Assembly: GCF_006345805.1 (NCBI RefSeq)
Contig: NW_021835887.1
Span: forward strand, 1 to 37,878
Direction of reading: 5' to 3'
DNA: 37,878 nt
Source: Octopus sinensis
Lineage: Eukaryota
Numbering within the stretch: the first letter of the stretch is position 1; each line of letters starts with the position of its first letter. A program made the translations under genes and the position numbers. The notes below the pieces were generated by a model, which was not told where the DNA came from, made no database searches, and was given only the letters and a program-made list of their open reading frames with translations. Of the stretch, positions 5,864 to 37,878 are shown piece by piece.

Positions 5864-6731
5864 CGAGGGTAATCCTAAAAGTAAGGTCTCCAAAACTATT
5901 TAGAAATCACAGAAACTTTTATTGTCAATGATGTTTACATCATTTGAAAGTTTGAACATTTATCTATTTTTCCTACATAATTGCCATTTCGGTCGATGCA
6001 TTTTTGTACGCGCTGGGGGCAGTTTTTGTATGAACATGTCTTACCAGCTCACCGCCAGTTTGTTGAGGGAGCGTTGGACCTCATCTTCAACAGTGTCGTC
6101 GTTGCTGAATCGCGTTCCGGCCAAATGTTTTTCAACTTAGGGAACAGGTAGTAGTCACTGGGTGCCAAGTCCGGACTATAAGGTGGGTCGCCGTTTATGG
6201 TCTTCTGTGAGCATTCGTGGGACCCATCTTGAACACTTTTCCGATATTGCAACTTTTCCCTCAAAACCCTATGAATGGTGCTTCGGGAAACCTCAGGAAC
6301 CAAAATGCGGAGATCATCAAGAGTGATCCGCCGATTTTCATACAGGATTTGCTCAACCTTCGCGACTGGTTCGTCGGAAATTAAGGGTCGGCCGCTTCTT
6401 TCTTCGTCATGAATTTCAGTACAACCAGCTGCAAACTCCCTACACCATTTGCCAACGTTTTTGACATCCATGCACCACTCGTCATACACTTCCGTTAATT
6501 GGCGATGAATTTCTATCGGTTTAATGCCTTTTGCGTTCAAAAACCGAACTTCACACTCGGCGGTAACGTCAGCCGGGAGCTCCATCCGATACTACTGCCA
6601 AGCCAAGACTGAGCGTGGCAGTGAGGTGCGCGTAGGGGCAGGCTCAGGCGCATGCACACCAAACAGAACAGTGTTGCCAATAGCCGCACGCATAGTTTCC
6701 CTGCGTCCCCAGAATTTTAAAGACCTTACTT
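5864..6731 (-). mobile_element. Mariner element, internally deleted, non-autonomous
   Basis: TA+CGAGGGTAATCCTAAAAGTAAGGTCT at 5864; inner 11 nt of the opposite TIR (AGACCTTACTT) at 6721-6731; transposase remnant inside. Confidence 0.9.
6049..6585 (-). pseudogene. Mariner transposase pseudogene
   Basis: HTH region (IEIHRQLTEVY, DEERSGRP, ENRRIT), WVPR motif in a shifted frame (KCSRWVPRMLTEDHKR), then a jump straight to PPYSPDLAPSDYYLFPKLK; the first two catalytic Asp regions are missing. Confidence 0.92.
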
Positions 6732-17908: not shown

Positions 17909-18631
17909 CATATATATGTATCTATATATATATAATATATATTATATATATAATATATATATATATAATATCATATATATATATACATATATATGTGTAT
18001 ATATATATATGAGTGTTTATTGTGAACTTTTTGATTGTACAAATTTATGTATGTCTGTATATCATTATATGTGAGCGAATGTGTATATATACATGCACAA
18101 ATTTATGCATGCAGAGTCGAAGGCGTAAATATGATTGTCTATACACATAATATATATATACAATATGTATATTTTTTACCTTTTTCACCTATGTATAGAA
18201 CGCCCTTGTGTTCATAGATATGTGCTTGGTTAAGATGTATGTCCGCACGCCTCGTGCTTTCCTCTGAGAATGTACGTATGTTGTATGCGTGTAGGCTTTG
18301 CAATATATATATATAATGTATATATGTATACGCATGTCGGCATATATGTATACATGTATGCGTACATGTGCTTGCCTATGTATGTGAAATGTACGCATAC
18401 ACATATATATGTATATCTATATATGTATTTTTGAATGTATAAATATATGCATATGTATATGTACACACATATATGCATATATATATATATACATATACAT
18501 ATATCCTTATATATATATATGCATACATATAAGTACATAGATGTACACATACATACATATATATCACACATATATACGTATATGTATATGAGTGAGTATG
18601 TGTTTGTATATATATATTATAAATATACATA

Positions 18632-18676
<45 letters not shown>

Positions 18677-18760
18677 TGTATATATATATATATAAATATA
18701 TATAATATAGTTGTTATATATATTATAGTTGTATATATGTATATATATATACATACACAA
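17645..18760. repeat. Compound (GT)n/(TA)n/(TACA)n low-complexity region
   Basis: Direct reading. Confidence 0.85.
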
Positions 18761-18861
18761 AGCTATTACATTCTACGACTGATGATGATGTCCACAAACA
18801 ATGGTGAGTGTGATAAACTTTTGTCTTTCACGTTCTTTATTCCATCCTAAGACGTTTCACA

Positions 18862-18960
18862 TTGCTGCTGCTCCTTCTGTTACTGCTTCACCTGTAGTCG
18901 ATGCTGCTGCTGCTGCTGCCCCTGCTTCTCATTCTGCTGCTGCTGCCGGTGCTGCTGCGG
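18862..18960. repeat. Degenerate (GCT)n/(CAG)n tract, probably within the Maf 3' UTR
   Basis: Several GCT runs about 350-450 bp downstream of the Maf stop; UTR extent is inference. Confidence 0.6.
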
Positions 18961-19112
18961 CTCCCCGTGCATTCCATGTCTTTGAAAATGAGATGCTTTC
19001 TGCATTAATCATCATTTATGATTGCAATAACAATGATAATAATTTCTTTATTAGTTCACGATTTGTCTTTGTTGCTGTTGTTGTTGTATCTTTTTTGTAT
19101 TGTTTTTTTTTT

Positions 19113-19127
19113 ATTTTTGCTGACTCA
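19113..19127 (+). promoter_or_regulatory. MARE-like site (AT-rich flank + TGCTGACTCA)
   Basis: ATTTTTGCTGACTCA: first 10 nt of the T-MARE TGCTGACTCAGCA with a 5' AT-rich extension. Confidence 0.35.
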
Positions 19128-19304
19128 ATTGTTTCAGAAATATTATTATTATTATTATCCATAACATTATTCATCATTATTTAATTTTTTTTCTTTTTCA
19201 TATATAATTGCTGTCAATTACTCTCTGTCTTTTCTCCTCAATAATTCCTTCATATATATAATATAATATATTTATTTATTTATTAATTTGTTTTATTTAT
19301 TTAT

Positions 19305-20102
19305 CTATTCAGTTAGTGGACTTGGTGAACTGGATAACGAACTATCTCGTTTCCTTTGTAGCCGCTCATAGCAGTCTTTATAATAGTCTCTCTCACGTGT
19401 AACCAGTCCAATTTGGCGTTGTATCACCGACAACTGTTGCTGCAAAGATTTGTTCGTCCGCTCCAACTCGTTTCGCTGTTGCATGCGCTTTGAACGACAG
19501 TTTTGGGCGTAACCCCTATTTTTCAGCGTTCTACGTTTCTGTTTCAAACGGCTCACTTCGTCCTTCGGAAACCCGTGTAGCCGCTTGTTGAGGTCACGTA
19601 CCGGCAGCGATACCAGTTCGTCATCATTGAGCTCACATTTGGCGAGATCGGGCGACGATCGCGCTTTGAAGCTCCTTTTTATACACACTGATGATGATGA
19701 TGCGGACGTTGATGATGATATGGACGAAGTGCTGTTTTTCCTTGACTGGCTTCTACTGCTTCCCATATTCGGATTCGGTGAGGAGTTGCTTAGAAACAAA
19801 TCTAACACTCCGTTCTGAGATATGTCATGATTGCTGTGTGTGTTTGTGAACCAGTAGATTTCCTCCATGAAGTTTTTCACGGGTGGCTGCAAGCTGGTCA
19901 CGTCCGGAGACGCGGATGACATGCTCGACTCTCCATCATCGGGACTGGTCGGTGCCGATTGGGAGCACTCCGATATATTACTACAGCATGTACTTGAGAA
20001 ACGATCCTTGTCGGATTCCATTTTAATTACTGGTACCATCTCCAGTTGTTCCAGATCAAAATCTGTGATATATTCATCTGTCAGATGCTGTGTCGACTCC
20101 AT
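19305..20102 (-). CDS. maf: Large Maf family bZIP transcription factor (c-Maf/MafA/MafB/NRL/traffic jam group), 265 aa, no intron in CDS
   Basis: Extended homology region + basic region [49 protein letters not shown] followed by a zipper ending RERDYYK..ERL; large-Maf N-terminal motifs EYITDFDL (cf. EYVNDFDL) and MEEIYWF (cf. LEDLYWM). First ATG at 20102; the ORF track's 20117 start is a TTG. Confidence 0.97.
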
Positions 20103-20146
20103 TGAGTAAAGTAACAAGATTCACACCTTCCTCTTCTTCTTTGGAT

Positions 20147-20196
20147 CTGGGTCACCGTCAGACAATGCCGGAAAAGAAAGAAAAAAAAGAGAAAAT
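20147..20196 (-). promoter_or_regulatory. Candidate 3' splice acceptor of a Maf 5'-leader intron
   Basis: Minus strand: ~25-nt pyrimidine tract TTTTCTCTTTTTTTTCTTTCTTTTCC, first downstream AG is CCCAG|ATCC at 20148-20147, 44 nt before the ATG. Confidence 0.55.
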
Positions 20197-20211
20197 ATAT
20201 AAATACATATA

Positions 20212-20464
20212 TAGATATAATATAATATAATATAATATAATATAATATAATATAATATAATATAATATAGTATAGTACAGTATGATGTAATATATATTAT
20301 ATTGACCCCAAAATTAAAATTACCCTTAACAAAATTAGATTCCCAATTAGATATAATATAATATAATATAATATAATATAATTATAGTATAGTACAGTAT
20401 GATGTAATATATATTATATTGACCCCTAAATTAAAATTACCCTTAACAAAATTAGATTCCCAAT
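20212..20464. repeat. Recent tandem duplication (20212-20347 / 20348-20464) containing (TATAA)n
   Basis: ~82-bp unique part TATAGTATAGTACAG...TTAGATTCCCAAT present twice with one substitution; pentamer repeat number differs. Confidence 0.93.
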
Positions 20465-20497
20465 GAAGAACAATCACGCATTTTCAATATAAGACAT

Positions 20498-20545
20498 GGA
20501 CAGAAAGACAGACACACAAACAGACAGATAGAAAGATAGACAGAC

Positions 20546-20602
<57 letters not shown>

Positions 20603-20621
20603 TAGATAGATAGATAGATAG
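20498..20621. repeat. (GACA)n/(GATA)n microsatellite
   Basis: Direct reading. Confidence 0.95.
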
Positions 20622-21322
20622 TGGCAGAGTTTGGTTTAGAACCAAGGGTCGGATGAAATACTTTTATTTTTCATAAAATGAACTCAAATCGTCTTTTACA
20701 AAATAGTTTCCGTGAGTTTACTGTGTTTGCTAAGGTTACAATGCTTTTTAAAAGTTTGAAATTAAGATACAGTTCTTGACCCTACACGTAAACTAATCCG
20801 TTACTGATCGGTTTTATACCAAATATTGCTGCCTGTGCTGGTCCCATTGAGACTCAGTGGTTTGAAGCCAGTGATCATCGGGATAAGATACTTCTAACAA
20901 ACTTTGAATTGCATTGCAATAATAGTTTCTTTTTTGTTTGTTTTTTTCTAATTGAGAGATTCGAATTTTGGTTGAGGAAATGTATCACAGGATTTCATAA
21001 AATGGTTAACTTGCTGTACAAGATTTGTTTAATAAACTCAAACGCTCTCCTATTGTTAAATCCTTCAAGATCTTAACACTTTCAGATTACTTTTACCTTG
21101 ACATAATGGAGTCATAGAATAGGCAGAACTGCCGAGTTTCTCGTAAGTTACATGACGGACTTTCTACCAGATATTTAATTTCTTGAATGTGTAATCGACA
21201 TTGGATTGCAGTCGTAAAAAAATGACTTCCAGTAAAAGAAAAGGGTGAAAACGTATGAAATATTTCTGTTCCAAAATGTTCAGAAGGAAACTCGTATCAG
21301 TTATATTCATGATATAAAGCTA

Positions 21323-21535
21323 AGGCGGCGAACTGGCAGAAATGTTAGCACGCCGGACGAAATGCTTAGCGGTGTTTCGTCTGTCTTTACGTTCTGAGTT
21401 CAAATTCCGCTGAGGTCGACTTTACCTTTCATCCTTTCGGCGTCGATAAATTAAGTACCAGTTGCGTACTGGGGTCGATCTAATCGACTGCCCCCATCCC
21501 CAAAAATTTCGGGCCTTGTGCCTACAGTAGAAACG
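21323..21535 (+). mobile_element. SINE family B, full length, with 12-bp TSD
   Basis: Head AGGCGGCGAACTGGCAGAAATGTTAG, B box GAGTTCAAATTCC, core GTCGACTTTACCTTTCATCCTTTCGG; GATATAAAGCTA at 21311-21322 and 21536-21547. Confidence 0.93.
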
Positions 21536-21967
21536 GATATAAAGCTATTGACTATTTACATTTGATTATTCCGGTCCAGATGTTCCATATAATAATGACG
21601 GGATCGAATCACTTTGTAAAATTTTAAAATAAAATGAAGGAAAAACTAGACTAATTTAGAGCACCAATGCCATAAATATAATAATGGGAATTTAATAAGC
21701 TATATGATAAGATATATGGTATGATAGAAAATAATACAATTTATATTTAATTTTATATGGCGATATTTAAATAATATTAGCTTTACATTAATATTCTATA
21801 TGTACCCACTTGTAATAAGAGAAGATTTAAGAGCGAAATTCTGTAACAGATGTATGCACAGTCCTTCTCTGAAGTTGTGTGCGAAACAGCACTTTAGCAT
21901 ATCAATAAATAGTTATAAATTAGTTATAGCTGTTTTATGAAACCCGGTTAAACATATGTTTATTTTA

Positions 21968-23191
21968 TTAGGTTGGGAAAAAGTCCTGTCACATTTTATT
22001 AATTTGAAGGTACTTTATCAATACTTGCGATAAAATAAGCATTAATTTTTACCTTCTAACCGTTCTTTTTCTTTCTCTCTACGCAGATTACTTTATAGTG
22101 TTGTGGTTCAATTCGTATTGATTTTACCCGTTTAAAATGAATTTATATCAAACCCATAAATGACACAGCTTACTGAATGAATTCAAAAGGACACTTCAGT
22201 AATGGAAGCGGCAAGAAATATTCGTTTTGTCTATGGAAACGAAGCTTTTAGTATGCGGAGATGCCGGCATGGTTTGGTCAGTTTCTCCCTGGAAATTTTT
22301 CTGTCTACCAAGTTCTCACAATATGGAGATATCTGAAAACCGTAGTCGAGGAAAATCCATAGCAAACGGTACAGGAAATATCAGATCGGTTCAATTCAAG
22401 TCACACTTCGATCATAAAGCATTTTCGTGAGCTACGAAAAGTCTAAACTTTGTCAATGGATCATTCATCAACTAACTGCTTCTCAGTTTAATGAAAAAAG
22501 TTGCCCCCTGTTTGTCATTGAACTTATTCTGGATACAAATCATCGCAAAAGATGTGAAGCGGATTTTCTATAACCATGCCCAACCGAAACCACAATGGTT
22601 TAGCTCGCAATACAGAAGGAGAATCCACGCCGCCCAAAGCATGACTACACATAAAAAATAAAGTTATGCTCTACGTTTGCTGGGATGTGAAAAGTGTCGT
22701 CTGTCATGAAGTGCTAGATCAAAACGAAGCAGTTAATGTAGAGAAGTATTGTCGTCTCTTCGAAGCATGGCACAAAAATTTGCAGAAAAAGTGAGCATCC
22801 ATCGGTGTTTTGGAAAATTGTGTTGCTCTCACTCGTTAATGTAAGACACATATTGACTCAGGAAAAGATTAATACGGAAGTTGGGCTCTGACCTCCTTAC
22901 TCTCCAGACTTTCCTTCATCAGACGACTATCTTTCCAGATCATTGCAACTTTATTTAGAAGGAATGTAGGTCATTAATTATGAAGGCGTTAAAAGTAATA
23001 TTGACTGTTTCTTTACTTCGAAACCGACAGAATTCTAAGCCCGGAAAATCAACGATTTATCAAATAGATGTCATCGATAGTGAAGCGAAATAAAAATAAT
23101 ATCTTGATTGAACATATCAATTAAGACCAAAGATGGGTGGGTTTTTTTATTTCCCCTCATTAATTTCGGCAGGACTTTTATTCCAGCCTAG
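21968..23191 (+). mobile_element. Near full-length, heavily decayed mariner element
   Basis: TA+TTAGGTTGGGAAAAAGTCCTGTC and GGCAGGACTTTTATTCCAGCCTAG as imperfect TIRs; remnants IIAKDVKRIFYNH (~IVTGDEKW), KVMLYVCWD, PPYSPDFPSSDDYLSRSL. Confidence 0.88.
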
Positions 23192-23466
23192 CAGAATTTA
23201 ATTGCAACATACAGTGGGTGGATGGTGGTGGTCGTGGTGGGATATTTTAGGAAGAAATACAGTAACGAAAAGGTAAGCTTTCAATGGAAAATAATGGTTT
23301 TCAATAAAGTTTTGAACACTCAAGTATTAATAGAGTCGAATAGGGTGAACAGGCGATGTGGTGAAAGCATGAGTTTTCAGTTTGTTTGTTTGTTGTTGTT
23401 TTTTTAGTGAGGGGTCCAGGGATATTGAGGATTGACGTGTTAGCTCATACACCTGGAGAGCAGTCC

Positions 23467-23575
23467 GATGGATAGATAGATAGAGAGAGAGAGAGATAGA
23501 GAGCGAGAGAGAGATAGATAGATAGAGAGAGAGGGGGTAGATAGATAGATAGACAGATAGATAGATAGATAGATA
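23467..23575. repeat. (GATA)n/(GA)n microsatellite
   Basis: Direct reading. Confidence 0.9.
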
Positions 23576-23748
23576 GGCAAGACAATGATAAGAAATGTGT
23601 AGTATTCACACTTGAGCTGCTACTACAGTCGCTGAGTTGCAAATACTAAAATTTATATAATACATTCCGAAACGTATGTGTGTGTGAGTCTATATGTGTA
23701 CTTGTGTGTGTGTTATTGCGAATGTGTCTGTATACACATACATACACA

Positions 23749-23796
<48 letters not shown>

Positions 23797-23814
23797 TACA
23801 TATATATATATATA

Positions 23815-23945
23815 CAGGGTGTTCCAAAAAAATGTATACAGATAGTGGTTCGGCAAAAGAGAACGATAGAATAAGTACTAGGCTTACAAAGAATAACAAA
23901 TTTACAATTATTTAAGGTGTGTATACATTTTTTGGGGACACCCTG
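23815..23945. mobile_element. 131-bp Tc1/mariner-type MITE with an internal SINE A fragment
   Basis: 26-bp TIRs CAGGGTGTTCCAAAAAAATGTATACA / TGTATACATTTTTTGGGGACACCCTG (2 mismatches), TA on both sides; 23843-23896 matches SINE A body. Confidence 0.88.
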
Positions 23946-23989
23946 TATATATATATATATATGCATGCATACATACATACATACATACA

Positions 23990-24020
<31 letters not shown>

Positions 24021-24404
24021 GATGTAAGAATACATATGCATGTATGTATGTATATATGTACCTATACTATCGGCTTGTATATGCGTGTTGTTATGTATGT
24101 GTATGCATATGGTTGTGTGCTTCCGTATATGCGCATGTATTTATGTATATGTCTATGTATAACGTGCGTACTTGTATCTGTGTATCTCAGCCACTGTGTG
24201 TGTGTGTGTTATAAGCAGTGATGGCGGATTGCATGGACGCCATGTGTGCATACAGGAAGTAGTTTTCAAGGGACCACAATCTGAAGTGGGTTCATTAAGA
24301 CCTAATGATGGGAGCAGTTAATTAGCAGATTAATTAAAACTGCACGCAAGTTATTTAATTACAAAGTGACGATCTGCTGAGTGTTATTAAGTTCATATAC
24401 CGAC

Positions 24405-24687
24405 ATATATGTGAATGTATACATGCATATACATATGTGTATGTATATATATATATATGTATATCATATATATATGCATGTGTATGTATGCATGTGTGTA
24501 TATGTATGTTTGTATGATTGTATGTATATACAGTATATTTCTCATACGTAATTTCAATTCTATAAAGTTTTAAGCTCTATGATATATGTGTGTGATATAT
24601 ATGTGTGCGTATATATATGAGTATGTGTATCAATGTATATATATATATGTATGTATATATATATACATATATATACGCATATGTATA

Positions 24688-24727
<40 letters not shown>

Positions 24728-24852
24728 ATATATATATAATATGTATGTATATATATAAAAATATATATGTATGTATATATATTATATATATATATGTATA
24801 TATAGATAGATAGATAGATATATAATATTATATATATATATATATATATATT
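24405..24852. repeat. (TA)n/(TG)n low-complexity region
   Basis: Direct reading. Confidence 0.85.
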
Positions 24853-24855
24853 ACT

Positions 24856-25016
24856 ACGAGCATTTTTCAGTTTCCGTCTACCAAATCTACTAACAAACTT
24901 TTGGCCGGCCCGAGGTTTAAGTAGAAGACACTCACCCAAGGTGCCACGCAATTGGACTGAACCTGGAACCATGTGGTTGGGAAGCAAGATCCTTACCACA
25001 CAGCCACTTCTGCGCC
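24856..25016 (-). mobile_element. SINE family A, 5' half
   Basis: Reverse complement of family A head (CTTACCACACAGCCACTTCTGCGCC) up to the internal microsatellite. Confidence 0.88.
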
Positions 25017-25065
25017 TATATATACTTACACACACCACACACACACACACAACACACACACACAC

Positions 25066-25134
<69 letters not shown>

Positions 25135-25170
25135 TGCATGCATGGTTAGATAGATAGATAGATAGATAGG

Positions 25171-25204
<34 letters not shown>

Positions 25205-25652
25205 TAGATGATAGATAGATAGATAGATAGATAGATAGAAGCATCTCATTAGTATGCTGAGAATTAAATAGACAAGCAATCAAACAGTTGGTTCAACTTT
25301 CACAACTACTGATTTTCCCAACGGTTGTAGAATTAACACGTGTCTCCCTGGTTGATCAGCAAAAGTTCCTGGCTGCTGCTTATAGATTCAAATATGGCGG
25401 TTTTTCGTTGAATTGAGAAGGAAATTACTGCAGTATACTGCCTGACTCCCCGTCTAATAGTTTGACAAATATTATGTCATGTGTTATGTCACGTGGTATG
25501 ATAAACGCCGAGCGATTCCAGTATCTTAGATTCAGAGATATTATTTTATTGTTTGTTGTTTCTTAGGTTTTTTTTATGGGTTGTTTTGGATCCAAATAGT
25601 CTTAGATGTTCGGGCATGTCTCCACTACAGATTTTTCGCAACAATAACAATA

Positions 25653-25882
25653 ATATTTCTTTCTACGTTAAGCATAAAGCCTGAAACTGGGGTGGTTGGG
25701 GGATAGTCGGGTACATCAACCGCATTATTCTGAGTAGATGAAATAACTAGTAGTTATTTGATCTACTCTTCGTGTAGATGAGCGGCAAAGTCGACGACGG
25801 CGACATATGAACTCAGAACGTAAAGACAAACGAAATACCACGAAGCATTGTACCCGACATACTAACAGTTCTGCCAGCTCGC
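25653..25882 (-). mobile_element. SINE family B copy (diverged)
   Basis: GGCAAAGTCGAC...GAACTCAGAACGTAAAGAC...TTCTGCCAGCTCG. Confidence 0.8.
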
Positions 25883-25914
25883 AACTTTGTCCCCACCCTT
25901 AATAATAACAATAA

Positions 25915-26133
25915 TAATCCTTTGTACTAAAGGCACAGTGCTTGATATTTTGTGGGGGAGGGGACTAGTCGATTACATCGAGCTCAGTGTTTGACTGGTA
26001 CTTAAATTATCGACCCCGAATGGATGAGAGCAAAGTCGACCACGGTGGAATTTGAACTAGGAACGAATCGACGGGCGAAATACTGCTAAGCAATTTGTCC
26101 AACGTGCTGACGATTCTGCCAGCTCACAGCCTT
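25915..26133 (-). mobile_element. SINE family B copy
   Basis: GGATGAGAGCAAAGTCGACCACGGTGGAATTTGAACT...GATTCTGCCAGCTCACAGCCTT; followed by (AAT)n 26138-26250. Confidence 0.88.
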
Positions 26134-26148
26134 CATATAATAATAATA

Positions 26149-26200
<52 letters not shown>

Positions 26201-26373
26201 CAGAATTAGTAATAATAATAGTAATAGTAATAATAGTAATAATAATAATGATGATGACACATATACGTGTATATTGTATTTCATATATATATATATATAT
26301 GTGTGTGTGTGTACCTCTAGTATTATATATGTGTGTATACACATATATATATATTTATACAGATAAAGAACGG

Positions 26374-26445
26374 GATAGACAGACAGGCAGATAGATTAGA
26401 TATATAGATAGATGCAGATAGATAGATAGATAGATAGATAGATAG

Positions 26446-26490
<45 letters not shown>
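26374..26490. repeat. (GATA)n microsatellite
   Basis: Direct reading. Confidence 0.9.
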
Positions 26491-28944
26491 GCCCTAAGGG
26501 AGGAAGACAAAGAGAGATGTAGGCGCGCATATACGTTACAGAATTGATTGGCATTATTTCGTCGTTGGTCGACTGTATTTCAGAGGCACTAACTTAACCA
26601 TCTCTTCTGGGTCTAGGGAGTGTCTAGAAAGAAGATTTAGCCCCATGTACCCTTACCACGCTTCCTCTCAGGAATACGCCATGAAGGAAATATAAGTCAA
26701 TTTGTTGGCAGCATCTGTGAGGGCTGCAGAGGACGCCAGATATTGGTTAAGTGTATCTGTACACATATCCTTTTGGGTCTACGCCTCTAGAGTTTCTTTC
26801 CTTAACGCTCAATAAATTATTCCACAAGGTCGCTGGAATTTATAATTATCAAGGCCATAGTTTGTACAAAACCAGTCCCACTTTCTCATCCTTCCGGCTT
26901 GTATTGGCTCTTTTGCAATAAGTGACGCAAACCCAGGCGTTATAAGGTTAAGGGATTTGCATAGAGTTACCTTCTATTAGATGAGCTGCGAAAGAGCTGA
27001 AGAGTATCATTTACTCTGGGTCCCGTGCGGTGTCTGGGAGTGACATTATTCCAGAGGAAACGTTGCATAAACAACACCAACAACGATAAAACATTGTGTT
27101 GTTTATTACGTGTAAATGAGCGGAGCGATAAGAAGATATCGATAAAGACTGGATTCGTTGCGAATGGACTATTCCACGAAAAGCTCTTGGAGGTGGTGCC
27201 TCTGCACGACATCGATCTACTGAAGCTAAACACAATTAAATGAATGTCACTTGGAATAAATATATATATTTTGTTATATTAGATCAGCGATTACCAGCCT
27301 AATGTCCACAAATTCATGTTGGTTCACAGAGGTAGGTTTTAAGGTCCGTGAGTTGTGTACAAAACATTAAAAGGCTGTAGTTTAAAGCACATAATTACGA
27401 TATTTGCGGTTCGGAAGACGCACTGTTTTGTAAAAAAGAAATCGCTTTGAATATGACCATGAATCTTTCACGATGCTAGTTGAGTAGTTATCTCTATGGT
27501 TTTGTACTCGGGTACCGAGAGCTGGTAGGTGGTCACCATTGTGGGAAGGCATGATCACGATATAGTTTGAATGATTGCAGGACAGTTAAAGCTAAGACAC
27601 AGTGTTGTGTACTACAATAAAAAATACCCGGTAGTAAGCCACCCAGTGGGTGGCCATTGTCGGATGGTTTCACATAAGTAATCCGCTGGTTTGCCTGCAA
27701 ACTTTGTCTGATAACAAGCGCTGAGAGTTGCCCGTTCATGTAAATAAGGGTTTGATAAATATAAAATATCCTGTCTTCAGAATTACATTTCCAAAATCAG
27801 GGTTCGGCGTCCACGATGCAGCGTCTGCCATGCCGCAATATACGAGACTCAGTTATACATAATTATTCAATTGATTATAGCTTCCGATTGAAAAAACGAG
27901 CTTGCTAGCTAATAAAGTCGACAGGCATTTTAAAAGCCTGGGGTCCACGAAGAAATTGGTTTAATATAAAGCGAGTTCTTGATAGCAAAAGATTTTGGAA
28001 AATCTGTATTAGCTGTATGAATCTGCCGGTATTGTCATAGATTTAGCGAAGTAACCTGCTTCCAGTTCTCTCAGTTGCATAGAATGTAGGTTTCTACATC
28101 ATTTAGTGATGTTGTCTGCAACAGATTAGCATCCAATCCACTGCAATAATCGCCTTGGATTAAATGTCTAAGATTTGATCTTTTTTACTCTTTTTAGTCT
28201 TGGAGACGCAATTATCACTTTTGTTTAACTCAACGGCTGCATGACTTGTTTAGTTAATTGCATATGGGCTATCGTGAACAATAGCGTCGATACCTATAAT
28301 GTCCCAAAGGAGAGCTATTCATTGTTTCAGTATATTTATAAAAGCCAGAGTAGCAAGGGAGTGTCTGTGTAATTCGAGCGTAATAAATACCAAACAAGGG
28401 ACTTGAATTCAGAAAATAAAGAACAGAAACAGTCGTTATACACGCATACACACACGCACACGCACGGACGAACTGACAGACAGACAGATAGATAGATGTA
28501 TATGTATATGCTATAAATGTATATGTTTACATATACTGTCGCAAACACATGCACACAGACGCATACAAACATACACACACACACACATATATATCTGTGT
28601 GTGTGTATAAATATATATATGTATATATATATTTATTATATAGAAGGATTGAGTACCTTATTTACTGTGGTTAACCCCGACTCAACCCGGGACCTACATA
28701 TGTATATATATATATAATATATATATATACACATACATACACACATATGCACTTACGTAGAGGCATACACACGTACTAATAAAAGTATATGTCATATATT
28801 TAGGGTCTGCGAGATAAGTTTTACAAGGCGGAGCAAAACAACCTTTGGGGTTCCGGATTGGAAGTGGGGTCCTCAAAGCTAAAGGAGCTGACATACAGAT
28901 ACATATATGTGAAGTTACACACACACACGCGACAGCTATATTAT

Positions 28945-29175
28945 TACTCTACCAAGGCTCAGAGAACCAGTCACTCGGCCTCCACGGCGCATGAATGATC
29001 GATATAAAAGCATTTTCTCTAACAAAGTGCCAGTCTATCGTAGGATTACTTGTTCACAGCCGAGAGGACGGACTGGAGCAACGCGAAAGGCAGTATTTTG
29101 CTCAAGAATACATCGCATCCCAGGCCTGCGAATCGAAACCAAAAGCAACACCCTAAAAGTTAACACCATAGTGCT
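28945..29175 (-). mobile_element. Diverged SINE related to family C
   Basis: TTTTGCTCAAGAATACATCGC...GAATCGAAACC is the reverse complement of the family C head; ends approximate. Confidence 0.55.
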
Positions 29176-29194
29176 AAATATATGTGTATATATA

Positions 29195-29228
<34 letters not shown>

Positions 29229-29428
29229 TTAGAGTGAGATAGAGAGATGGAGAGAGAAAAAGAGCGTGACAGACAGGACAGACAGACAGGGTGACTAATA
29301 CATAGGCCCGATTATTTTACTCATACTATATTTTTTAACCTCTAGAAGAAAAGTATAATTTCATCTTTATATGTGTGAGAGTATTATTATTCATGTATAT
29401 ATATATATATATATGCACATGTATATAT

Positions 29429-29474
<46 letters not shown>

Positions 29475-30374
29475 ATATTATATATATATACATGTGCATA
29501 CACACAAGCACACACATATGCATATAAACAGGAAGACAAAAACAGATAGATAGACAGACAGAGAGACAAGCAGACAAACAGACAGGCAGAGAGACAGTAG
29601 AGAGAAGCTATATACAGTTGTGGAAATCAGCTGCCCAGCGTATGTTAATCTAAAGCTACAGACAAGCGAAAACGAAAACACGTTTGCGAAATTATTGAGC
29701 AATTTACAGTTACTCTACCCGGGTAACAAGTTCAGGTTTACAAATTCAAGTTTCTGTAATTGTTGAGGCACTGCAATATGTGACCAACTGACTAAGCACC
29801 AGTTTTGAGAAATTAAGCTTCTCAAAACTAGAAAGGAGAAGCTAATTGAAAGCTTAGAGATTCGAGTAATCAATAAGACTATAAAAATTTGCAAAACTTT
29901 GCAAAAGTCTAGCGTTTAAGTATACACGTGCGCGTCAAGCCGTGCAACTGTATGCTTGAGAATCCATACATAAAGCAAAACATATAAATCTGCACAGGCA
30001 CTGACAACAAATACTGCACACATACACACAGACATGCACAAATATCCTGCTGCGGTTGTGGAAATGTCAATGCAAGCCTTCGACCTAGGTTAGAAATCGG
30101 CACTTTCTCCATTGGCAAGAAATCTTGAAAAAAAATTAATAATAACATAATACATGGCATATATGAAAGGAATTCCCCGAAATTATAAGGATCCAAAGTG
30201 GATACATAAAAAGAAAGGGGAATATTTAGGAGAAGGAAACTGAAAGGGTTGGAATATTATGTAGGTCTTATATGAGTTAAGGAATGCGCAGAGGTTTCGT
30301 CGTTCTCATTGATGGGTGGTCCCAGACAGTCTGGTGCTGTGGTGCACGTGGCCGAAATTGGCACTCTTTTGGTC

Positions 30375-30608
30375 CCAGTTGATCCGATCAATGGAACAGC
30401 ATGCTCGTGAAATTAGCATGCAAGTGGTCCGAGCACTCTACAGAAACTTGTACCCTTAACGTAGTTCTCAGGGAGATTCAGCTTGTCACACTCTGTGTCA
30501 CACTGAATCTCCCCGAGAACTACGTTAAGGGTACACGTGTCTGTGGAGTGCTCAGCCACTTGCACGTTAATTTCACGAGCAGGCTGTTCCATTGATCGGA
30601 TCAGCTGG
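30375..30608. repeat. Long inverted repeat: ~107-bp arms, 21-nt spacer
   Basis: 30375-30481 is the reverse complement of 30503-30608 with about 10 differences. Confidence 0.95.
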
Positions 30609-30979
30609 AACACTCGCCGTCGTACATGTATCAATTACGTGTATGCCTATGCATATGTGTGTGTGTGCAGAAATACATCAGTGTATGTCTGTACATGTGA
30701 GTATACACACACACACACACACACAGAAGAGGAGGGAGTGAGGCAGAGAAAGAGAACGGACTCTCCTGTCGTAGACGAAAATGAGCGTTTCGAATTTCCT
30801 TGATGAACAACCTGCGCAGAGAATGTGCTAATAGGAATCAAATATTCACTTCCTCTATCAAATCGACTTTACTTCTGGTGTGCCACATGTCAGGTGTTCA
30901 AGTAATCGCAAAACAACGTAAGATGAAGTATCTTGCTCGAGAACAGGAATCTTGAAGTTGTATGACATGCTAACCATAT

Positions 30980-31025
30980 TATAATAATAATAATAACAAT
31001 AATAATAATAATAATAATGATAATA

Positions 31026-31067
<42 letters not shown>
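30980..31067. repeat. (AAT)n microsatellite
   Basis: Direct reading. Confidence 0.95.
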
Positions 31068-31068
<1 letters not shown>

Positions 31069-31559
31069 TAATTCGTTTATTGGCCACAAGGGCCAACAAA
31101 GATCAATTATAACATTTAGGGACAAAATACAGGACGAAAGTTACAAAGGGTTTTGTAATAACATTGAATAATACATTAGGAATGAGAACCCAGATTTGAA
31201 ATTTCCCCAAGACACCTGATGAAGGCTGTGGAGGGTAACAAAGAAGATGAGGACAAATATCCGTCAAATGTAAATAATGTAAATAATGTAAATGATTCCT
31301 CATTTCTTAAATATAGAATTACACATGCACAGCATTGAATGTGTGACTACAAATACCCAGGATCTCAGCTGCATCAAAACTTAATAGTAAAGTACACATA
31401 AAAATAATTAAGACAATATATTCTAATTCCTTAAAATTGATGATCGAATTGCAGATTTTAATTACAATCGTTTAAGCCTGTTACATTAAACCTAGTAACG
31501 CCCTCGTGCGTACACGTCTTGCGATGTCGTATCATATATATCGTTCATGTGTGTGTGTT

Positions 31560-31812
31560 GGGGTGTGTGGCATAGTGGTTAGGGTGGTGGATTCATAATC
31601 GTAAGATTGTGGTTTCAATTCCTGGACCGATCGACGCGTTGTGTTCTTGAGCAAAACACTTCCTTTCATGTTGCTCAAGTCCGCACAGCCGGCAAAAAGG
31701 AGTTAAACCCTGAGAGGGACTGGCGTCCCGTCCAGTGGAGAATATATACACCATTGAAACCGGGAAACCTTATGAGTCGGTAGAACTGGAGACTGTAACT
31801 TTACTCTTTACC
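31560..31812 (+). mobile_element. tRNA-derived SINE family C
   Basis: GTGGCATAGTGGTTAGG A box, GGTTTCAATTCC B box, GTGTTCTTGAGCAAAACACTT, GACTGGCGTCCCGTCCAG, short TTTACTC tail. Confidence 0.8.
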
Positions 31813-31857
31813 TATATGTGTATGTGTATATAATATATCTATATATATATATATACA

Positions 31858-32146
31858 TGGAGGCAGCGGACTCGCGGTCGGAGGATCGCGGTTTCGATTC
31901 CCAAACCGGGCGTTGTGTATGTTTATTAAGCAAAAACGCCTAAAAGCTCCACGAGGCTCCGGCAGGGGATGGTGGTGACCCCTGTTGTACTCTTTCGCCC
32001 CAACTTTCTCTCACTGTCTCTTCCTGTTTCTTGAGTAACGCCGCGATGGACTGGCGTCCTGTCCAGCTGGGGGAGAACATATATGCCACAGAAACCGGGC
32101 CCATGAGCCTGTCTAGGCTTGAAAAGGGCGTATAAATAATAAATAA
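31858..32146 (+). mobile_element. tRNA-derived SINE, family C-related variant
   Basis: GGTTTCGATTCCC B box; shares GACTGGCGTCCTGTCCAG...GAAACCGGG with 31560-31812; AAATAAT tail. Confidence 0.75.
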
Positions 32147-32367
32147 TATTTCTTCCATGTATGCTTGTGTGGGGGGGGGCTGTGTGTGCGTGTGTGTGTG
32201 TGTGTGTGGTGGTGTATGTGTGTGTGTGTTGCTCAGGCATAGTAGTGCCAATAAACTAGTGTTAGAACTCAATACACACATGCTTCAGAGAAAGGAATTA
32301 GTTGAATACAGAGTGTGATAAGAGATTATATTAAAGACAAGGGGACAAGAAATTATGTAATGAATTT

Positions 32368-32426
32368 CATTAGCTTACAGCTGTTTCTGCAATTAGCTGC
32401 AATGCGCTCATAGATCAGAGCTTATG
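32368..32426 (-). ncRNA. Decayed type I hammerhead ribozyme
   Basis: Minus strand: CATAAGCT CTGA[TCTA]TGA GCGCAT TGCAG-CTAA-TTGCA GAAAC AGCT GTA AGCTAATG; 7/8-bp stem I, same stem III as 7598-7653, 4-nt insertion in the first core box. Confidence 0.6.
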
Positions 32427-32878
32427 TATTATGCTATAGCTTCGTCGAATGTATATAGAGTGAGAGAGAGATAACAAAATAGAGAGAGAGACAGAAATAG
32501 AGACAGACAGTTAGACAGACAGATTGACAAACAGACAGACAGTGAATTAAATTGTATTGATGAAGCCCCTGATCCGTTATAAATATTGCTGAACTTATCA
32601 TCTGCAAACTTCTCATCTGCTGTGAGATTGACAGTCAGTATTGATGAAATGGGTTGGGTTCGGAATATGAAGCCATCGCCAGCTAAGGACACAGTCCAAC
32701 TGCTGACCTTGGTCGGGGGAATTCGATTAGTGGGAGGTCAGCTGAAGGAATGGTGTTACAACAGCCAGTCGCGAACGGCGACGAAAGAACTTTGACTAAA
32801 CAAGCTGACTAATTAATTGACTGATTTAATGATTAACCAGACAATGGATTAGTCAATTGGGTAAACGTTGACGAATTG

Positions 32879-32899
32879 AATAATAATATAATAATAATA

Positions 32900-32940
<41 letters not shown>

Positions 32941-32963
32941 GTAATAATAACAATAATAATAAC

Positions 32964-33007
<44 letters not shown>

Positions 33008-33017
33008 TAATAATAAT
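32879..33017. repeat. (AAT)n microsatellite at SINE B tail
   Basis: Direct reading. Confidence 0.95.
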
Positions 33018-33216
33018 GGTTTCAAATTTTGCCACAAGGGCAGCCATTTTGAGGGAGGAGGTGTGTCGATTACAGTGTTTCACTTAATTTATTGACTCCG
33101 AAAGGAAGAAAGGTAAAGTCGACCTCGGCGGAATTTGAACTAAGAATGTAGCGACGGATGAAATTCTGCTAAGTATGTTCTCTTACGTGCTAGCGATTCC
33201 GCCTGCTCGTCGCCTT
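33018..33216 (-). mobile_element. SINE family B copy
   Basis: AAAGGTAAAGTCGACCTCGGCGGAATTTGAACT...GCTCGTCGCCTT. Confidence 0.9.
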
Positions 33217-33767
33217 ACTACAAACGAATAAAAATAAAATAGTAAAATATTACCAGCACGTGTATTTATTATCGACATAATGACCCTCCCGAGATAAATA
33301 ACTAAAGAATGAATGAAAGAACGAAAGAAAACGAGAAAGAAAGAAAGAAAGAAAGAAAAAGAGTTTATGAGAGAAAGGGAATGTTCAATAAGTGCTATGA
33401 TGGTGGTGTAGAGTGATGTTTAGCTTGATCAACCCTGTCTGAGCAGACATGTAATCAAAAATGTACCAGGCGTGACCATCATCCCTATAATTAAAACGAT
33501 ATAGTACTATTTGAGGGAGGCGTAGCTACTATTTCTGGAAGGCCATCTGACCACATAAAGGCTCCGTCGCTGAATCGGTTTCGTCATCGATATTGTTCTT
33601 GTTGTTTAGATATTTTTAGCTCCAGGTAAATCTTTACATCAAATTTTAAATGACGTTCCAGCTGTGACCACCACATAAAGGTTCTAGTAAAGGTTACCAG
33701 CGTTTATTGATGTATCATTGAATGCGTGTTAGTCTTTGTGTGTATGTGTTTGTGTGCGATCACTTGT

Positions 33768-34160
33768 GAGGGTAAGGTAGGGAATTTGCTTCTCAACCAC
33801 ATGGTTCCGGGTTCAGTCCCACTGCTTGGCACCTTGAGCAAGTGCCGTCTGCTATAGCCTCAAACCGACCGAAACGTTGTGAGTGAATTTGGTCGACGGA
33901 AACCGAAAGAAGTCCATCGAATATATGTAGGTGTGTGAGAGAGAGAGAAAAAAAGAGAGTGAGTGAGTGTATGTGTATGTAAGTGTGTCTGTGTGTGCGT
34001 GACAGCCGGTGCTGGTTTGTTTACGTTCCCGTAGCTTAGTTGTTCAGGAAAAGAGAGGCAAAATAAGTACCAAGCTTAGAAAAACACCGGATTGGGGTCC
34101 ACTAAACCCTTCGTGGCAGTGCCCCTGCATGGCCACAGTCCAGTGACTGAAGCAAGAAAG
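33768..34160 (+). mobile_element. SINE family A copy (diverged)
   Basis: AACCACATGGTTCCGGGTTCAGTCCCACTG...GACGGAAACCGAAAGAAG...GCATGGCCACAGTCCAGTGACTGAAGC. Confidence 0.85.
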
Positions 34161-34179
34161 ATTTGTTTTTCAAATAAGA

Positions 34180-34635
34180 TATACATGTATGTATGTTTGT
34201 GTGTCTACGCGTGTCTGCGTACGTGTGTGAGTGTGAGTGTGTCTGTATGTATGTATGCGTGTATGTATGTACGTATGTACGTATGTATGCATGCCTGCAT
34301 GTACTATGCATGTATGTATGTATGTATGTATGTATGTTTGTATGTATGTGTGTATGTATGTATGTTTGTATGTGTGTACGTATGTATGTATCTATGTACG
34401 TAGAACGTATATACGTGTATATGTATGCCTGCATGTACTATGCATATGTGTATGTATGTATGTTTGTATGTATGTATGTATGTTTGTATGTATGTTTCTA
34501 CGTACGTACGTATGTATGCATGTATGCATGAATTATGTTTGTAAGTATGCATGCACGTATTGTGTATGTATTATGCATGTATGTATACACACACACGTAA
34601 GCACACTTGTGTCTGTGTGCGCGTATGCATGTATG
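34180..34635. repeat. Degenerate (GTAT)n repeat
   Basis: Direct reading. Confidence 0.9.
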
Positions 34636-35124
34636 GTACAAAATTTTCCACTTTCCAACACACACTTTCTCTCCCCCCCACACACACACACTCACACACA
34701 GACACAAACACACAAACACTTTTATTATCTTTCTTATTATCTTCTGATCTTTCTATCTCTCAGCCCTTCGGTTTGTTTACAATCTAGACACACCTGTCCC
34801 TCTGCCTGTCCTATCAGCTCCTCACATCTGTTACTCTGTCAGTCTGCCTCTCTCTCCAACTGTTCGTCTCTATGCATTTCCTCTTTCTTTATCTGTCTGT
34901 GTGTCAGTCTACATCTACCTGTCAGTCTCTAACATGTGTCTATGCCTTTCAAAATCCATCTCTCCTTTCCTCTCTTGGTCTCTCCCCCTCATTCTCTTTC
35001 TTTCTCTCTCTCTACCTCTCTCTCTCCCTCTACCTCTCTCTCTCTAGAGAGGACGCTCTCCCTCTTTCTCTGCTGATTTGCATATTTTTCATACTTTTTA
35101 TCGGCACAAGTTAAGATTTGAAAA

Positions 35125-35420
35125 ATATATATATAATATATATATGCATGTATGTATGTATGTATGTATGTATGTATGTATGTATGTATGTATGTATGTG
35201 TATTTATAAGTATATATATATATATATATTTACATACATACATACATGCATGCATGCATGCATGCATGCATACATACAACATACATACATACATACATAC
35301 ATACATACTACATACATACGTACATACATACATACATACATACATACATACATACATACATACATACATACGTACATACATATAGATATATATGCATACA
35401 TATATGTATATATATATATG
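35125..35420. repeat. (GTAT)n followed by its complement (CATA)n
   Basis: Direct reading; self-complementary arrangement about 35210. Confidence 0.9.
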
Positions 35421-36637
35421 TTGTGCGTGCAGTTCAAGCTAGTTTCCAGAAAGTTGAAGACGTTGTTTTTCAATGAATTATGTTGTAGTTGTAACAGTAA
35501 AATGAAGCGTTGCTGTCACCAGTGCCATGTTCTTTGTCTTGAATGCGTTAGCAAACATTTCATACCGTGCCTGCAATTCCATATTAACTCCGTTAATATC
35601 GACTTGCTGACAATAGCTGTTTTTCTATTCATTCTTTGTGTAGGGTTGTTATATGATATTTCGCAGTTAAACATAAATTACTCTATTTTTGAAGTATTAT
35701 TGAATAGGTGCCGTTCTATCCCTGTAGCAAATGCGATGCCGATAACCTCTTGCTGATCTTTCTTTTACTAAATTTACCTCGAATGAGCAGTGTAATGCTT
35801 TCATGGTGACCGTGTTATAAAATGTAAGCATACCAGTACAATTAGCTCTTAAATTAGTTTCCTATAGAATTAATGTAAGGCAACATAGCATCTCCATTTC
35901 GTTGCAAGTATAGTGAGCTGACACATGATGCACCGACTCATGCAATTGTTATTCAAGGGACATGATTCAGCGTTTCGACAAATGCTTTAAGTTCATCGTT
36001 ATATCCTGTAAATTGACAAATAGCAACAGGTACCAAGTTTGTATCTAACTTCAAGTTGTGCATGATTGTTTCCTGAACGTGTCAGCTGTGCATTCACTCC
36101 AGCTGTTGGAAATCATCATGGTGTCGTCCAATACAGTCCTACGCTACTATTGTTGTCCATCTGCTCTGGTTTACTCTAAAGAAAAATGTCTATAATTTCA
36201 AACGCAGCACGCTATATCTTCTCAATGAAACGTTTAAAATGTCCCTATTCATTGCTATTAATTATAAGTATGCATGTAGATCGTGCTTTAGTTTTGAGAC
36301 TAGGTGCAAAGTGAATGGTTATATGGAAGAGATTTTCTAAGATACATAAATAATAATCTACAATGTTAAATTCTATAAAACAGCAATTCCCAATCTCTTT
36401 AAATCGGCCTATGACAAAAGCTGATATTTACTTGTACTCATCTTCTTTTGCTGATTGTCAAGTCTAGTTCGCTTTGCCCTGGAATAAACAGCCTACAGTT
36501 CAGAGTGTAGTTTACATTGATTTCAGATCTTTGGGTGTAATGTATGCATTTTTCTTAGTTATTCCGTTAGTTTTCTTTTTAAACGCAGTGTGGGTACTTT
36601 TTATCTGATTATATATGTTAATATTCCTGTATAAATA

Positions 36638-36870
36638 GGACTGCGAGCTAGCAGAATCGTTAGCACACCGGGTGAAATGCTTAGCGGTATTTCGTCTACC
36701 GTTACGTTGTGAGTTCAAATTCCTCCGAGTTCGACAGTGCCTTTCATCCTTTCGGGGTCGATTAAATAAGTACTAGTTACGCACTGGGGCTGATGTAATC
36801 TACTTAATCCCTTTGTCTGTCCTTATTTGTCCCCTCTACGTTTAGCCCCCTGTGGGCAATAAAGAAATAA
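36638..36870 (+). mobile_element. SINE family B variant with different 3' end
   Basis: GCGAGCTAGCAGAATCGTTAGCAC...GAGTTCAAATTCC...GCCTTTCATCCTTTCGGGGTCGAT; tail CAATAAAGAAATAA. Confidence 0.88.
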
Positions 36871-37230
36871 ATATTCTTGTATTGTGGTATTTTTAGAGAA
36901 TTTTACTGTGCAGTGCAGTAAGTTATTATGTGTGATATAAATTCTACAGGTATTTGACATAACTAACACGCCCCAAAGCTCAATAGGAGAAACTCCAGGG
37001 TTAATTCCCAGATGAAATGATGTGTGTGTGTGTGTGTATATAGAGATAAAAACTTGTCATCAAATGATATTAGATAAATACTTACACCAAGTGCACAAGC
37101 GAATAAGCAGACTCTTTCATGGCTATTCAACTGTTCACAGAGCTGACACAAGCACAACCAGGCAGGCATCCATAATTACTTCAAGACCATAACAACATAC
37201 AACTCACCACGTATATCAATATCATAAATA

Positions 37231-37510
37231 ATGCGCAAGATAAGTGAGAGGAAAGCAGAACCGTGGGCGAAGGAGGTTGGGTGTAGAGGATTTGCAGGGC
37301 TCACTGCGATGAGCAAGATCCAGGCTTTGGGTGTGGCTGGATGTGATATGAAGTGGCTCGCTGAGTCGGATTTGTGGAGAAGAGCGTGGAGAATATTGTG
37401 TAGGGTATTCGAATGTAGTGCTAGGCAGGTAGGGGTCGGAGGTACCGTAATTCAAGGACCGAAACAGCGATGAGAACTAGTAGAGTGCTGAAGATGTTCC
37501 AGTGTCGGTA
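37231..37510 (+). mobile_element. 3' remnant of a non-LTR retrotransposon with restriction-like endonuclease (HERO-like)
   Basis: ORF 37231-37473 contains EVGCRGFAG...ALGVAG, which I recognise as the C-terminal end of the restriction-like endonuclease region of HERO-type elements; recognition from memory, no RT domain visible. Confidence 0.6.
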
Positions 37511-37544
37511 TCCAGGGACTACGCAGTAAATATATTGTGGGTAT

Positions 37545-37658
37545 TTGTGTGTGTGTGTGTGTGTGTGTGTATAAAAGTGAGAGATAGACAGACAGACAAA
37601 TCAATAGCTAGATAGATAGATAAATTGATAATCAGATAGATAGACAGATAGATCTACT

Positions 37659-37708
<50 letters not shown>

Positions 37709-37878
37709 GTATATATATATATAATATATATATATCATATATATATAAATATATATATATTATATACCAAATATATGGGGAGAGAAGAGAGAGAAAAGTA
37801 GAGAAATAGAGAAGAGTGAGAGATAAATATACAAATATGTGTGTGTGTACGTATGTATGTGTGTGTGTGTGCGCGTGT
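37545..37878. repeat. Compound (GT)n/(GATA)n/(CT)n/(TA)n microsatellites
   Basis: Direct reading. Confidence 0.9.

Follow-up and report, generated by a model that had tools for sequence, protein, structure and literature searches.

An exact PKKKRKV-stop reading ahead of an octopus large-Maf gene is probably a chance product of a purine-rich leader

The window (the whole stretch of DNA analysed, 37,878 bases) is an entire contig of an octopus genome of 2.72 Gb in 13,516 contigs. Its minus strand carries a large-Maf bZIP coding sequence of 265 aa plus a TAG stop (19305..20102). The ORF matches Pfam bZIP_Maf (PF03131; E 2.4e-29, residues 158-249) and includes, in a stretch of 13 residues, the N-terminal acidic DFDL motif of Maf that is kept across cephalopods; both the domain and the motif of a large Maf bZIP protein are present. 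Orthologues are named MafA-like in the sources, and the protein is identical at 264 of 265 positions to Octopus bimaculoides MafA (XP_014782317.1) and at 95% to an Argonauta hians protein. The start Met (20102) is invariant across 9 aligned cephalopod sequences, and all five of the unextended cephalopod forms (XP_014782317.1, Argonauta hians, Acanthosepion pharaonis, P0003 and P0004) begin at it. Maf has a basic region of its own (a run of 21 residues). Such a region is carried by bZIP proteins, and Maf has no apparent need of an added import signal.

The contig is AT-rich, with 77 tandem-repeat rows within 18000-37878 alone, and a TGATGA microsatellite was found at 19685-19720. Directly 5' of the Maf leader lies a tandem repeat of a 117-bp unit (20235-20464; 2.0 copies, 98% identity), flanked by (ATATA)n and by an (AGAT)25 microsatellite (20522-20621). 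In the presumed 3' flank of Maf, on the opposite strand, a 127-aa ORF (18801-19184, plus strand) is Ala-rich via (GCT)n; it is without a Pfam match and is probably repeat-generated. Another ORF, of 178 aa (6049-6585, minus strand), has a transposase-like N-terminus and reached an E of 4.1e-07 with Pfam HTH_32 (30.9 bits, just below the 33.7-bit cut-off); this is probably a degraded DNA-transposon copy.

By direct reading, the minus strand from 20168 to 20100 encodes, in a single frame, ALSDGDPDPKKKRKV*ILLLYS-M (codons GCA TTG TCT GAC GGT GAC CCA GAT CCA AAG AAG AAG AGG AAG GTG TGA ATC TTG TTA CTT TAC TCA ATG). The peptide PKKKRKV is read from 21 nt of this stretch (CCA AAG AAG AAG AGG AAG GTG, 20124..20144), begins 14 codons 5' of the Maf ATG (20102-20100) and shares its frame. 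An in-frame TGA (20121..20123), 6 codons 5' of the Maf ATG, closes the leader frame, and an 18-nt spacer without ATG, ATCTTGTTACTTTACTCA (20103..20120), separates the two. The presence of the PKKKRKV-stop string in the DNA is confirmed, and the initial annotation had every one of these coordinates right, including the Maf frame and the distance of 2 nt between the Pro codon and a candidate splice acceptor. That acceptor is a predicted 3' splice-site AG (20147..20148, minus strand), the first AG after 82 AG-free nt and the first downstream of an uninterrupted 26-nt pyrimidine run (20170..20195). Immediately following it is a purine-rich tract of AAG/AGG repeats, ATCCAAAGAAGAAGAGGAAGGTG (20124..20146), which includes the PKKKRKV codons, has purines at 19 of 23 positions and is a possible exonic splicing enhancer; its run of GAR-type purine repeats is AAGAAGAAGAGGAAGG.

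The monopartite nuclear localization signal (NLS) of SV40 large-T antigen is PKKKRKV, and the consensus for such signals is K-K/R-X-K/R. The basic cluster of the octopus leader agrees with this consensus and is an exact copy of PKKKRKV. As an exact sequence, the 24-mer with GAT in front occurs once in the genome, and the flagged stretch together with its 211-base surroundings is single copy. Within the single window, the one match to PKKKRKV compares with none in 100 shuffles and with an expectation of 5.8e-5 from base composition.

In the genome as a whole, the degenerate pattern CCN AAR AAR AAR MGN AAR GTN was found at 17 sites and a reversed-pattern control at 69. Given that MGN also includes the Ser codons AGT and AGC, four of the 17 were dropped, leaving 13 sites in 2.72 Gb that encode PKKKRKV, against 4.2 expected from base composition. 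The open frames around the other 12 are 16-112 codons long, and most of these sites look non-coding. PKKKRKV 21-mers occur genome-wide at about the rate that composition predicts and are not rare, and poly-Lys is encoded in one frame of any AAG run. Among these sites, one (L008; G000:C12:78703852-78704471, minus strand) has the motif as ...NSESPPKKKRKVEERKKEKKEEMKKQW... within a 64-codon open frame and differs from most of the other 11 in having the look of a real basic exon from a nuclear protein.

The initial annotation had listed a vector or synthetic artefact among its four explanations. According to this explanation, an engineered NLS tag would have entered the DNA through a vector, a synthetic construct or an assembly error. 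DPKKKRKV is a unit of commercial NLS tags, and AGATCC resembles a BglII/BamHI fusion scar. A set of 98 sampled words of 19305-20200 was sought in sequencing runs. At least half of the words were contained in 19 of the 24 runs listed (four runs at 1.00, two at 0.97 and thirteen at 0.94). Three of these 19 were flagged as possible assembly sources; the other 16 bear three organism labels, and one of the runs without a source flag (X2) contained every sampled word. On either side lie ordinary octopus microsatellite DNA and the Maf gene; another octopod has a diverged homologue of the stretch, and a collection of 72,556 plasmid records gave no match (this collection is not a vector library and is a weak substitute for VecScreen). 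The vector or synthetic tag was rejected on its presence in runs of several studies under three organism labels and on the octopod homologue; this explanation is refuted in practice, its likelihood being close to nil, and the stretch is natural DNA.

The initial annotation had also stated that no in-frame ATG lies nearby, and this held: none was found in the 86 open codons upstream of PKKKRKV in contiguous DNA. Between 20230 and 20103 there is one ATG, out of frame (20208-20206). The sole near-cognate start candidate for the 15-codon frame that ends at the TGA is an in-frame TTG (20163..20165, minus strand), a candidate from sequence alone whose use is unsupported. Apart from Maf, the only ATG-started ORF of at least 25 aa overlapping 20050-20250 is an 80-aa plus-strand frame (19867-20109), which lies antisense inside the Maf coding sequence and stops short of PKKKRKV. 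A search of 19000-21500 against Rfam returned no family. The local RNA fold around the leader is ordinary (157 nt, z = 0.29, with 115 of 200 shuffles folding as well), and no stable duplex was found in it around the UGA.

These results bear on the proposal of a spliced upstream ORF (uORF) that ends in the stretch, in which an AUG in an upstream exon would open a frame for a short peptide ending in DPKKKRKV, or for a uORF that damps Maf translation. The frame is indeed free of stops as far as the candidate acceptor and ends 18 nt ahead of the Maf AUG, and regulatory uORFs are common in bZIP mRNAs, GCN4, ATF4 and C/EBP being examples. Spliced-looking cuttlefish Maf leaders, which are described below, have an in-frame upstream ATG (MYIIK...), but their upstream frame runs into Maf and provides no uORF end. 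Considering also that the contiguous sequence of the window has no start codon and that neither the stop (TGG in a related octopod) nor the peptide is conserved, we regard a uORF as very unlikely. Among the matches listed in a literature search on PKKKRKV and upstream open reading frames, the titles and abstract openings mention no natural leader-encoded NLS.

The comparison with other cephalopods was made first of all within the 90% cluster of this Maf, which has four members. One of them, P0123, is a 299-aa protein of another octopod (three Logan contigs, of up to 1198 nt). Its ORF call starts at an upstream ATG and therefore includes the homologous leader in translation. This leader is MYWYPFSFLLSFPVLSDAEPDLKKRKVWISWLYS-MEST..., or, written with its preceding residues, YPFS-FLLSFPVLSDAEPD-LKKRKVWISWLYS-M. 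In place of PKKKRKV-stop it has PDLKKRKV-W: Leu replaces the Pro of the motif, there is one Lys codon fewer, and TGG is found where the window has TGA. Flanking leader residues differ as well (A to V, G to A, D to E, L to S and L to W). With the stop/W column included, the window and P0123 disagree in 11 of 33 leader columns, as compared with 2 of 265 positions of Maf. A Fisher test on this contrast, which took TGA as W and so counted 10 of 33, gave p = 4e-9. By this alignment, the leader evolves far faster than the protein, like non-coding DNA. The two indels that separate these octopods both preserve the frame, and the lost AAG unit is as expected of repeat slippage. At most one or two of the at least ten implied base changes are A to G; the difference from P0123 is therefore species divergence and not editing.

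In cuttlefish, a cluster whose named member is Acanthosepion pharaonis supplied five leader-spanning ORFs (...HKHAYNIFIA(S/R)KQLELILS(S/G)A-MDST), and the basic cluster is absent from the leader in all five. No shorter partial ORFs covering the leader were found in other species. PKKKRKV is not conserved in the sequences compared (LKKRKV-W in P0123, no basic cluster in cuttlefish), nor is the stop that would end a uORF, and the exact motif with its stop appears to be confined to this lineage. The initial annotation had proposed a spliced NLS micropeptide or a Maf extended by read-through or editing, and had itself named lack of conservation of the peptide among the findings that would count against them; on this point both lose ground.

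The cuttlefish leaders share the 26 codons before the ATG and then take two forms, MLTYTHTFVYYQ (P0002) and MYIIK (P0126, P0128, P0129 and P0131). From their sequences, these look like unspliced and spliced versions of a 5'-UTR intron. The spliced-looking form has an in-frame upstream ATG that runs into Maf. At the other end of the gene, P0126, P0127, P0129 and P0131 continue beyond the annotated end as ...SSLTE, W, ANR..., while P0124, P0128 and P0002 stop at ...SSLTE; the W at this cuttlefish Maf stop may mark stop-loss A-to-I editing or a polymorphism. The same stop change in the window (Maf TAG, 19307-19305) would add W-I-N-K alone.

The leader frame is otherwise open in the window, is fully open in P0123 and is open in the cuttlefish transcripts with an in-frame upstream ATG. 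Open in-frame leaders in three lineages were considered as a coding signal, and this was rejected, since no stop codon can occur within a pyrimidine run or an AAG repeat and since the protein collection, by retaining the longest ORF, is biased towards such forms.

A further explanation is that the stretch forms a conditional, NLS-bearing N-terminal extension of Maf, begun at an AUG in an upstream exon or at the in-frame UUG (20165-20163), with the UGA passed by editing to UGG or by read-through. The second route is disfavoured, since a UGA with A as the next base is not known to be leaky. The identity of the frame with that of Maf, the TGG at the UGA codon in the related octopod, where the frame is continuous, and the W read at the Maf stop in some cuttlefish ORFs would all suit such an extension, and stop-loss editing exists in coleoids, where UAG-to-UGG changes are recognised in transcriptomes (PMC8382921). 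Against it, contiguous DNA offers no AUG and no upstream ORF to be joined or extended, no stable local duplex surrounds the UGA (z = 0.29), the extension evolves about as fast as unconstrained sequence (11/33 compared with 2/265), and the cephalopod forms all conserve the Met at 20102 as their start. We hold an extended Maf to be highly improbable. Equally doubtful is the more specific idea that the leader UGA acts as a gate, by which a Maf isoform begun upstream would gain a 21-residue NLS extension only on UGA-to-UGG editing or read-through; on this idea the TGG of the sister octopod would be the gate hard-wired open, and the in-frame upstream AUG of cuttlefish mRNAs leads into Maf. Were the peptide reading true, a cephalopod would offer a rare case in which RNA editing or a leader-encoded peptide switches the nuclear import of a transcription factor.

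The purine tract could instead act at the RNA level, the NLS reading being a by-product. As an exonic splicing enhancer, its AAG/AGG repeats beside a weakly placed 3' splice site might recruit SR or Tra2-type proteins and help to define the Maf coding exon. The composition of the tract (19/23 purines, GAR-type repeats, beginning 1 nt past the candidate acceptor) is consistent with this, as is the order of a 26-nt pyrimidine run and then the first AG after 82 AG-free nt, although the run ends 22 nt before the AG and does not adjoin it. The core AAG AAG AGG AAG GTG is kept as KKRKV in P0123 between changed flanks, but five unchanged codons amid about 30% change are not significant (about 0.17 by our arithmetic). 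Each of the thirteen runs at 0.94, 11 of which are guessed to be RNA, is without 6 of the 98 words, while DNA runs are at 1.00; if the missing words are those of the upstream end, an RNA boundary would lie near 20147 +/- 9. The same word share, however, would equally suit transcription that begins near 20166, with TATA-like strings upstream. One of the cuttlefish leader forms ends ...FVYYQ, which as judged from its translation would fit a ...YAG acceptor, but cuttlefish are without a purine tract at the matching place, and the P0123 contig continues through the supposed intron end, meaning that it is DNA or unspliced RNA. The word share and the cuttlefish forms are both weak hints that fit a 5'-UTR intron ending at 20147. 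Overall, an enhancer function is possible but unlikely. Under either model, a 5'-UTR intron or a transcription start, the flagged stretch is leader without an AUG.

Chance production from a purine-rich tract was another of the four explanations that the initial annotation had offered, and it is the one favoured by non-conservation, base rate and composition. The exactness of the seven-residue match, with its preceding Asp, in frame with a transcription factor and 14 codons ahead of its start (5.8e-5 per window), weighs against chance. So do the openness of the leader frame in octopods and cuttlefish, the two octopod indels being both in frame, the documented stop-loss editing of coleoids and the W at the stop of some cuttlefish Maf ORFs. 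On the other side are the missing in-frame start on contiguous DNA, the missing conservation in the octopod and cuttlefish, the conserved Maf Met, the base rate, the composition, and the lack of an Rfam, fold or opposite-strand feature. The chance reading is favoured because the sister octopod has a different version of the stretch and cuttlefish have none. In our judgement, PKKKRKV-stop is likely to be what a fast-evolving, purine-rich stretch of AAG repeats spells by chance, without being translated, in the non-coding leader of this large-Maf gene.

As a chance reading, the stretch would lie within the mature 5' leader, which would begin at a 3' splice site (20147/20146) or where transcription starts close by. 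The first AUG to be reached by a scanning ribosome would then be the conserved one of Maf (20102), so that Maf would be made without an extension. The locus is of use for calibration: an AAG microsatellite in a non-coding leader can give rise to a textbook motif, exact and in frame, beside a start codon, and a single related sequence was enough to show that PKKKRKV-stop is not maintained.

The features of the octopus leader can be set beside four known systems. With the uORFs of GCN4, ATF4 and C/EBP it shares a short frame ending just 5' of a bZIP main AUG; it differs from them in having no in-frame AUG in 20103-20230 and in that its stop is TGG in P0123. With purine-rich (GAR)n exonic splicing enhancers it shares AAG/AGG repeats, 19/23 purines and a place after a candidate 3' splice site, but the octopus tract could equally be a neutral trinucleotide microsatellite. 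As in the stop-loss A-to-I recoding of coleoids (PMC8382921), the octopus UGA would become UGG (Trp) if its last A were edited, joining two frames; it differs in having neither a local duplex nor an upstream ORF to join. Finally, the leader gives the same seven-residue string as the NLS of SV40 large-T antigen when it is read in the Maf frame, whereas the octopus copy is without a start codon on contiguous DNA, is not conserved, and occurs in its genome at about the rate of chance.
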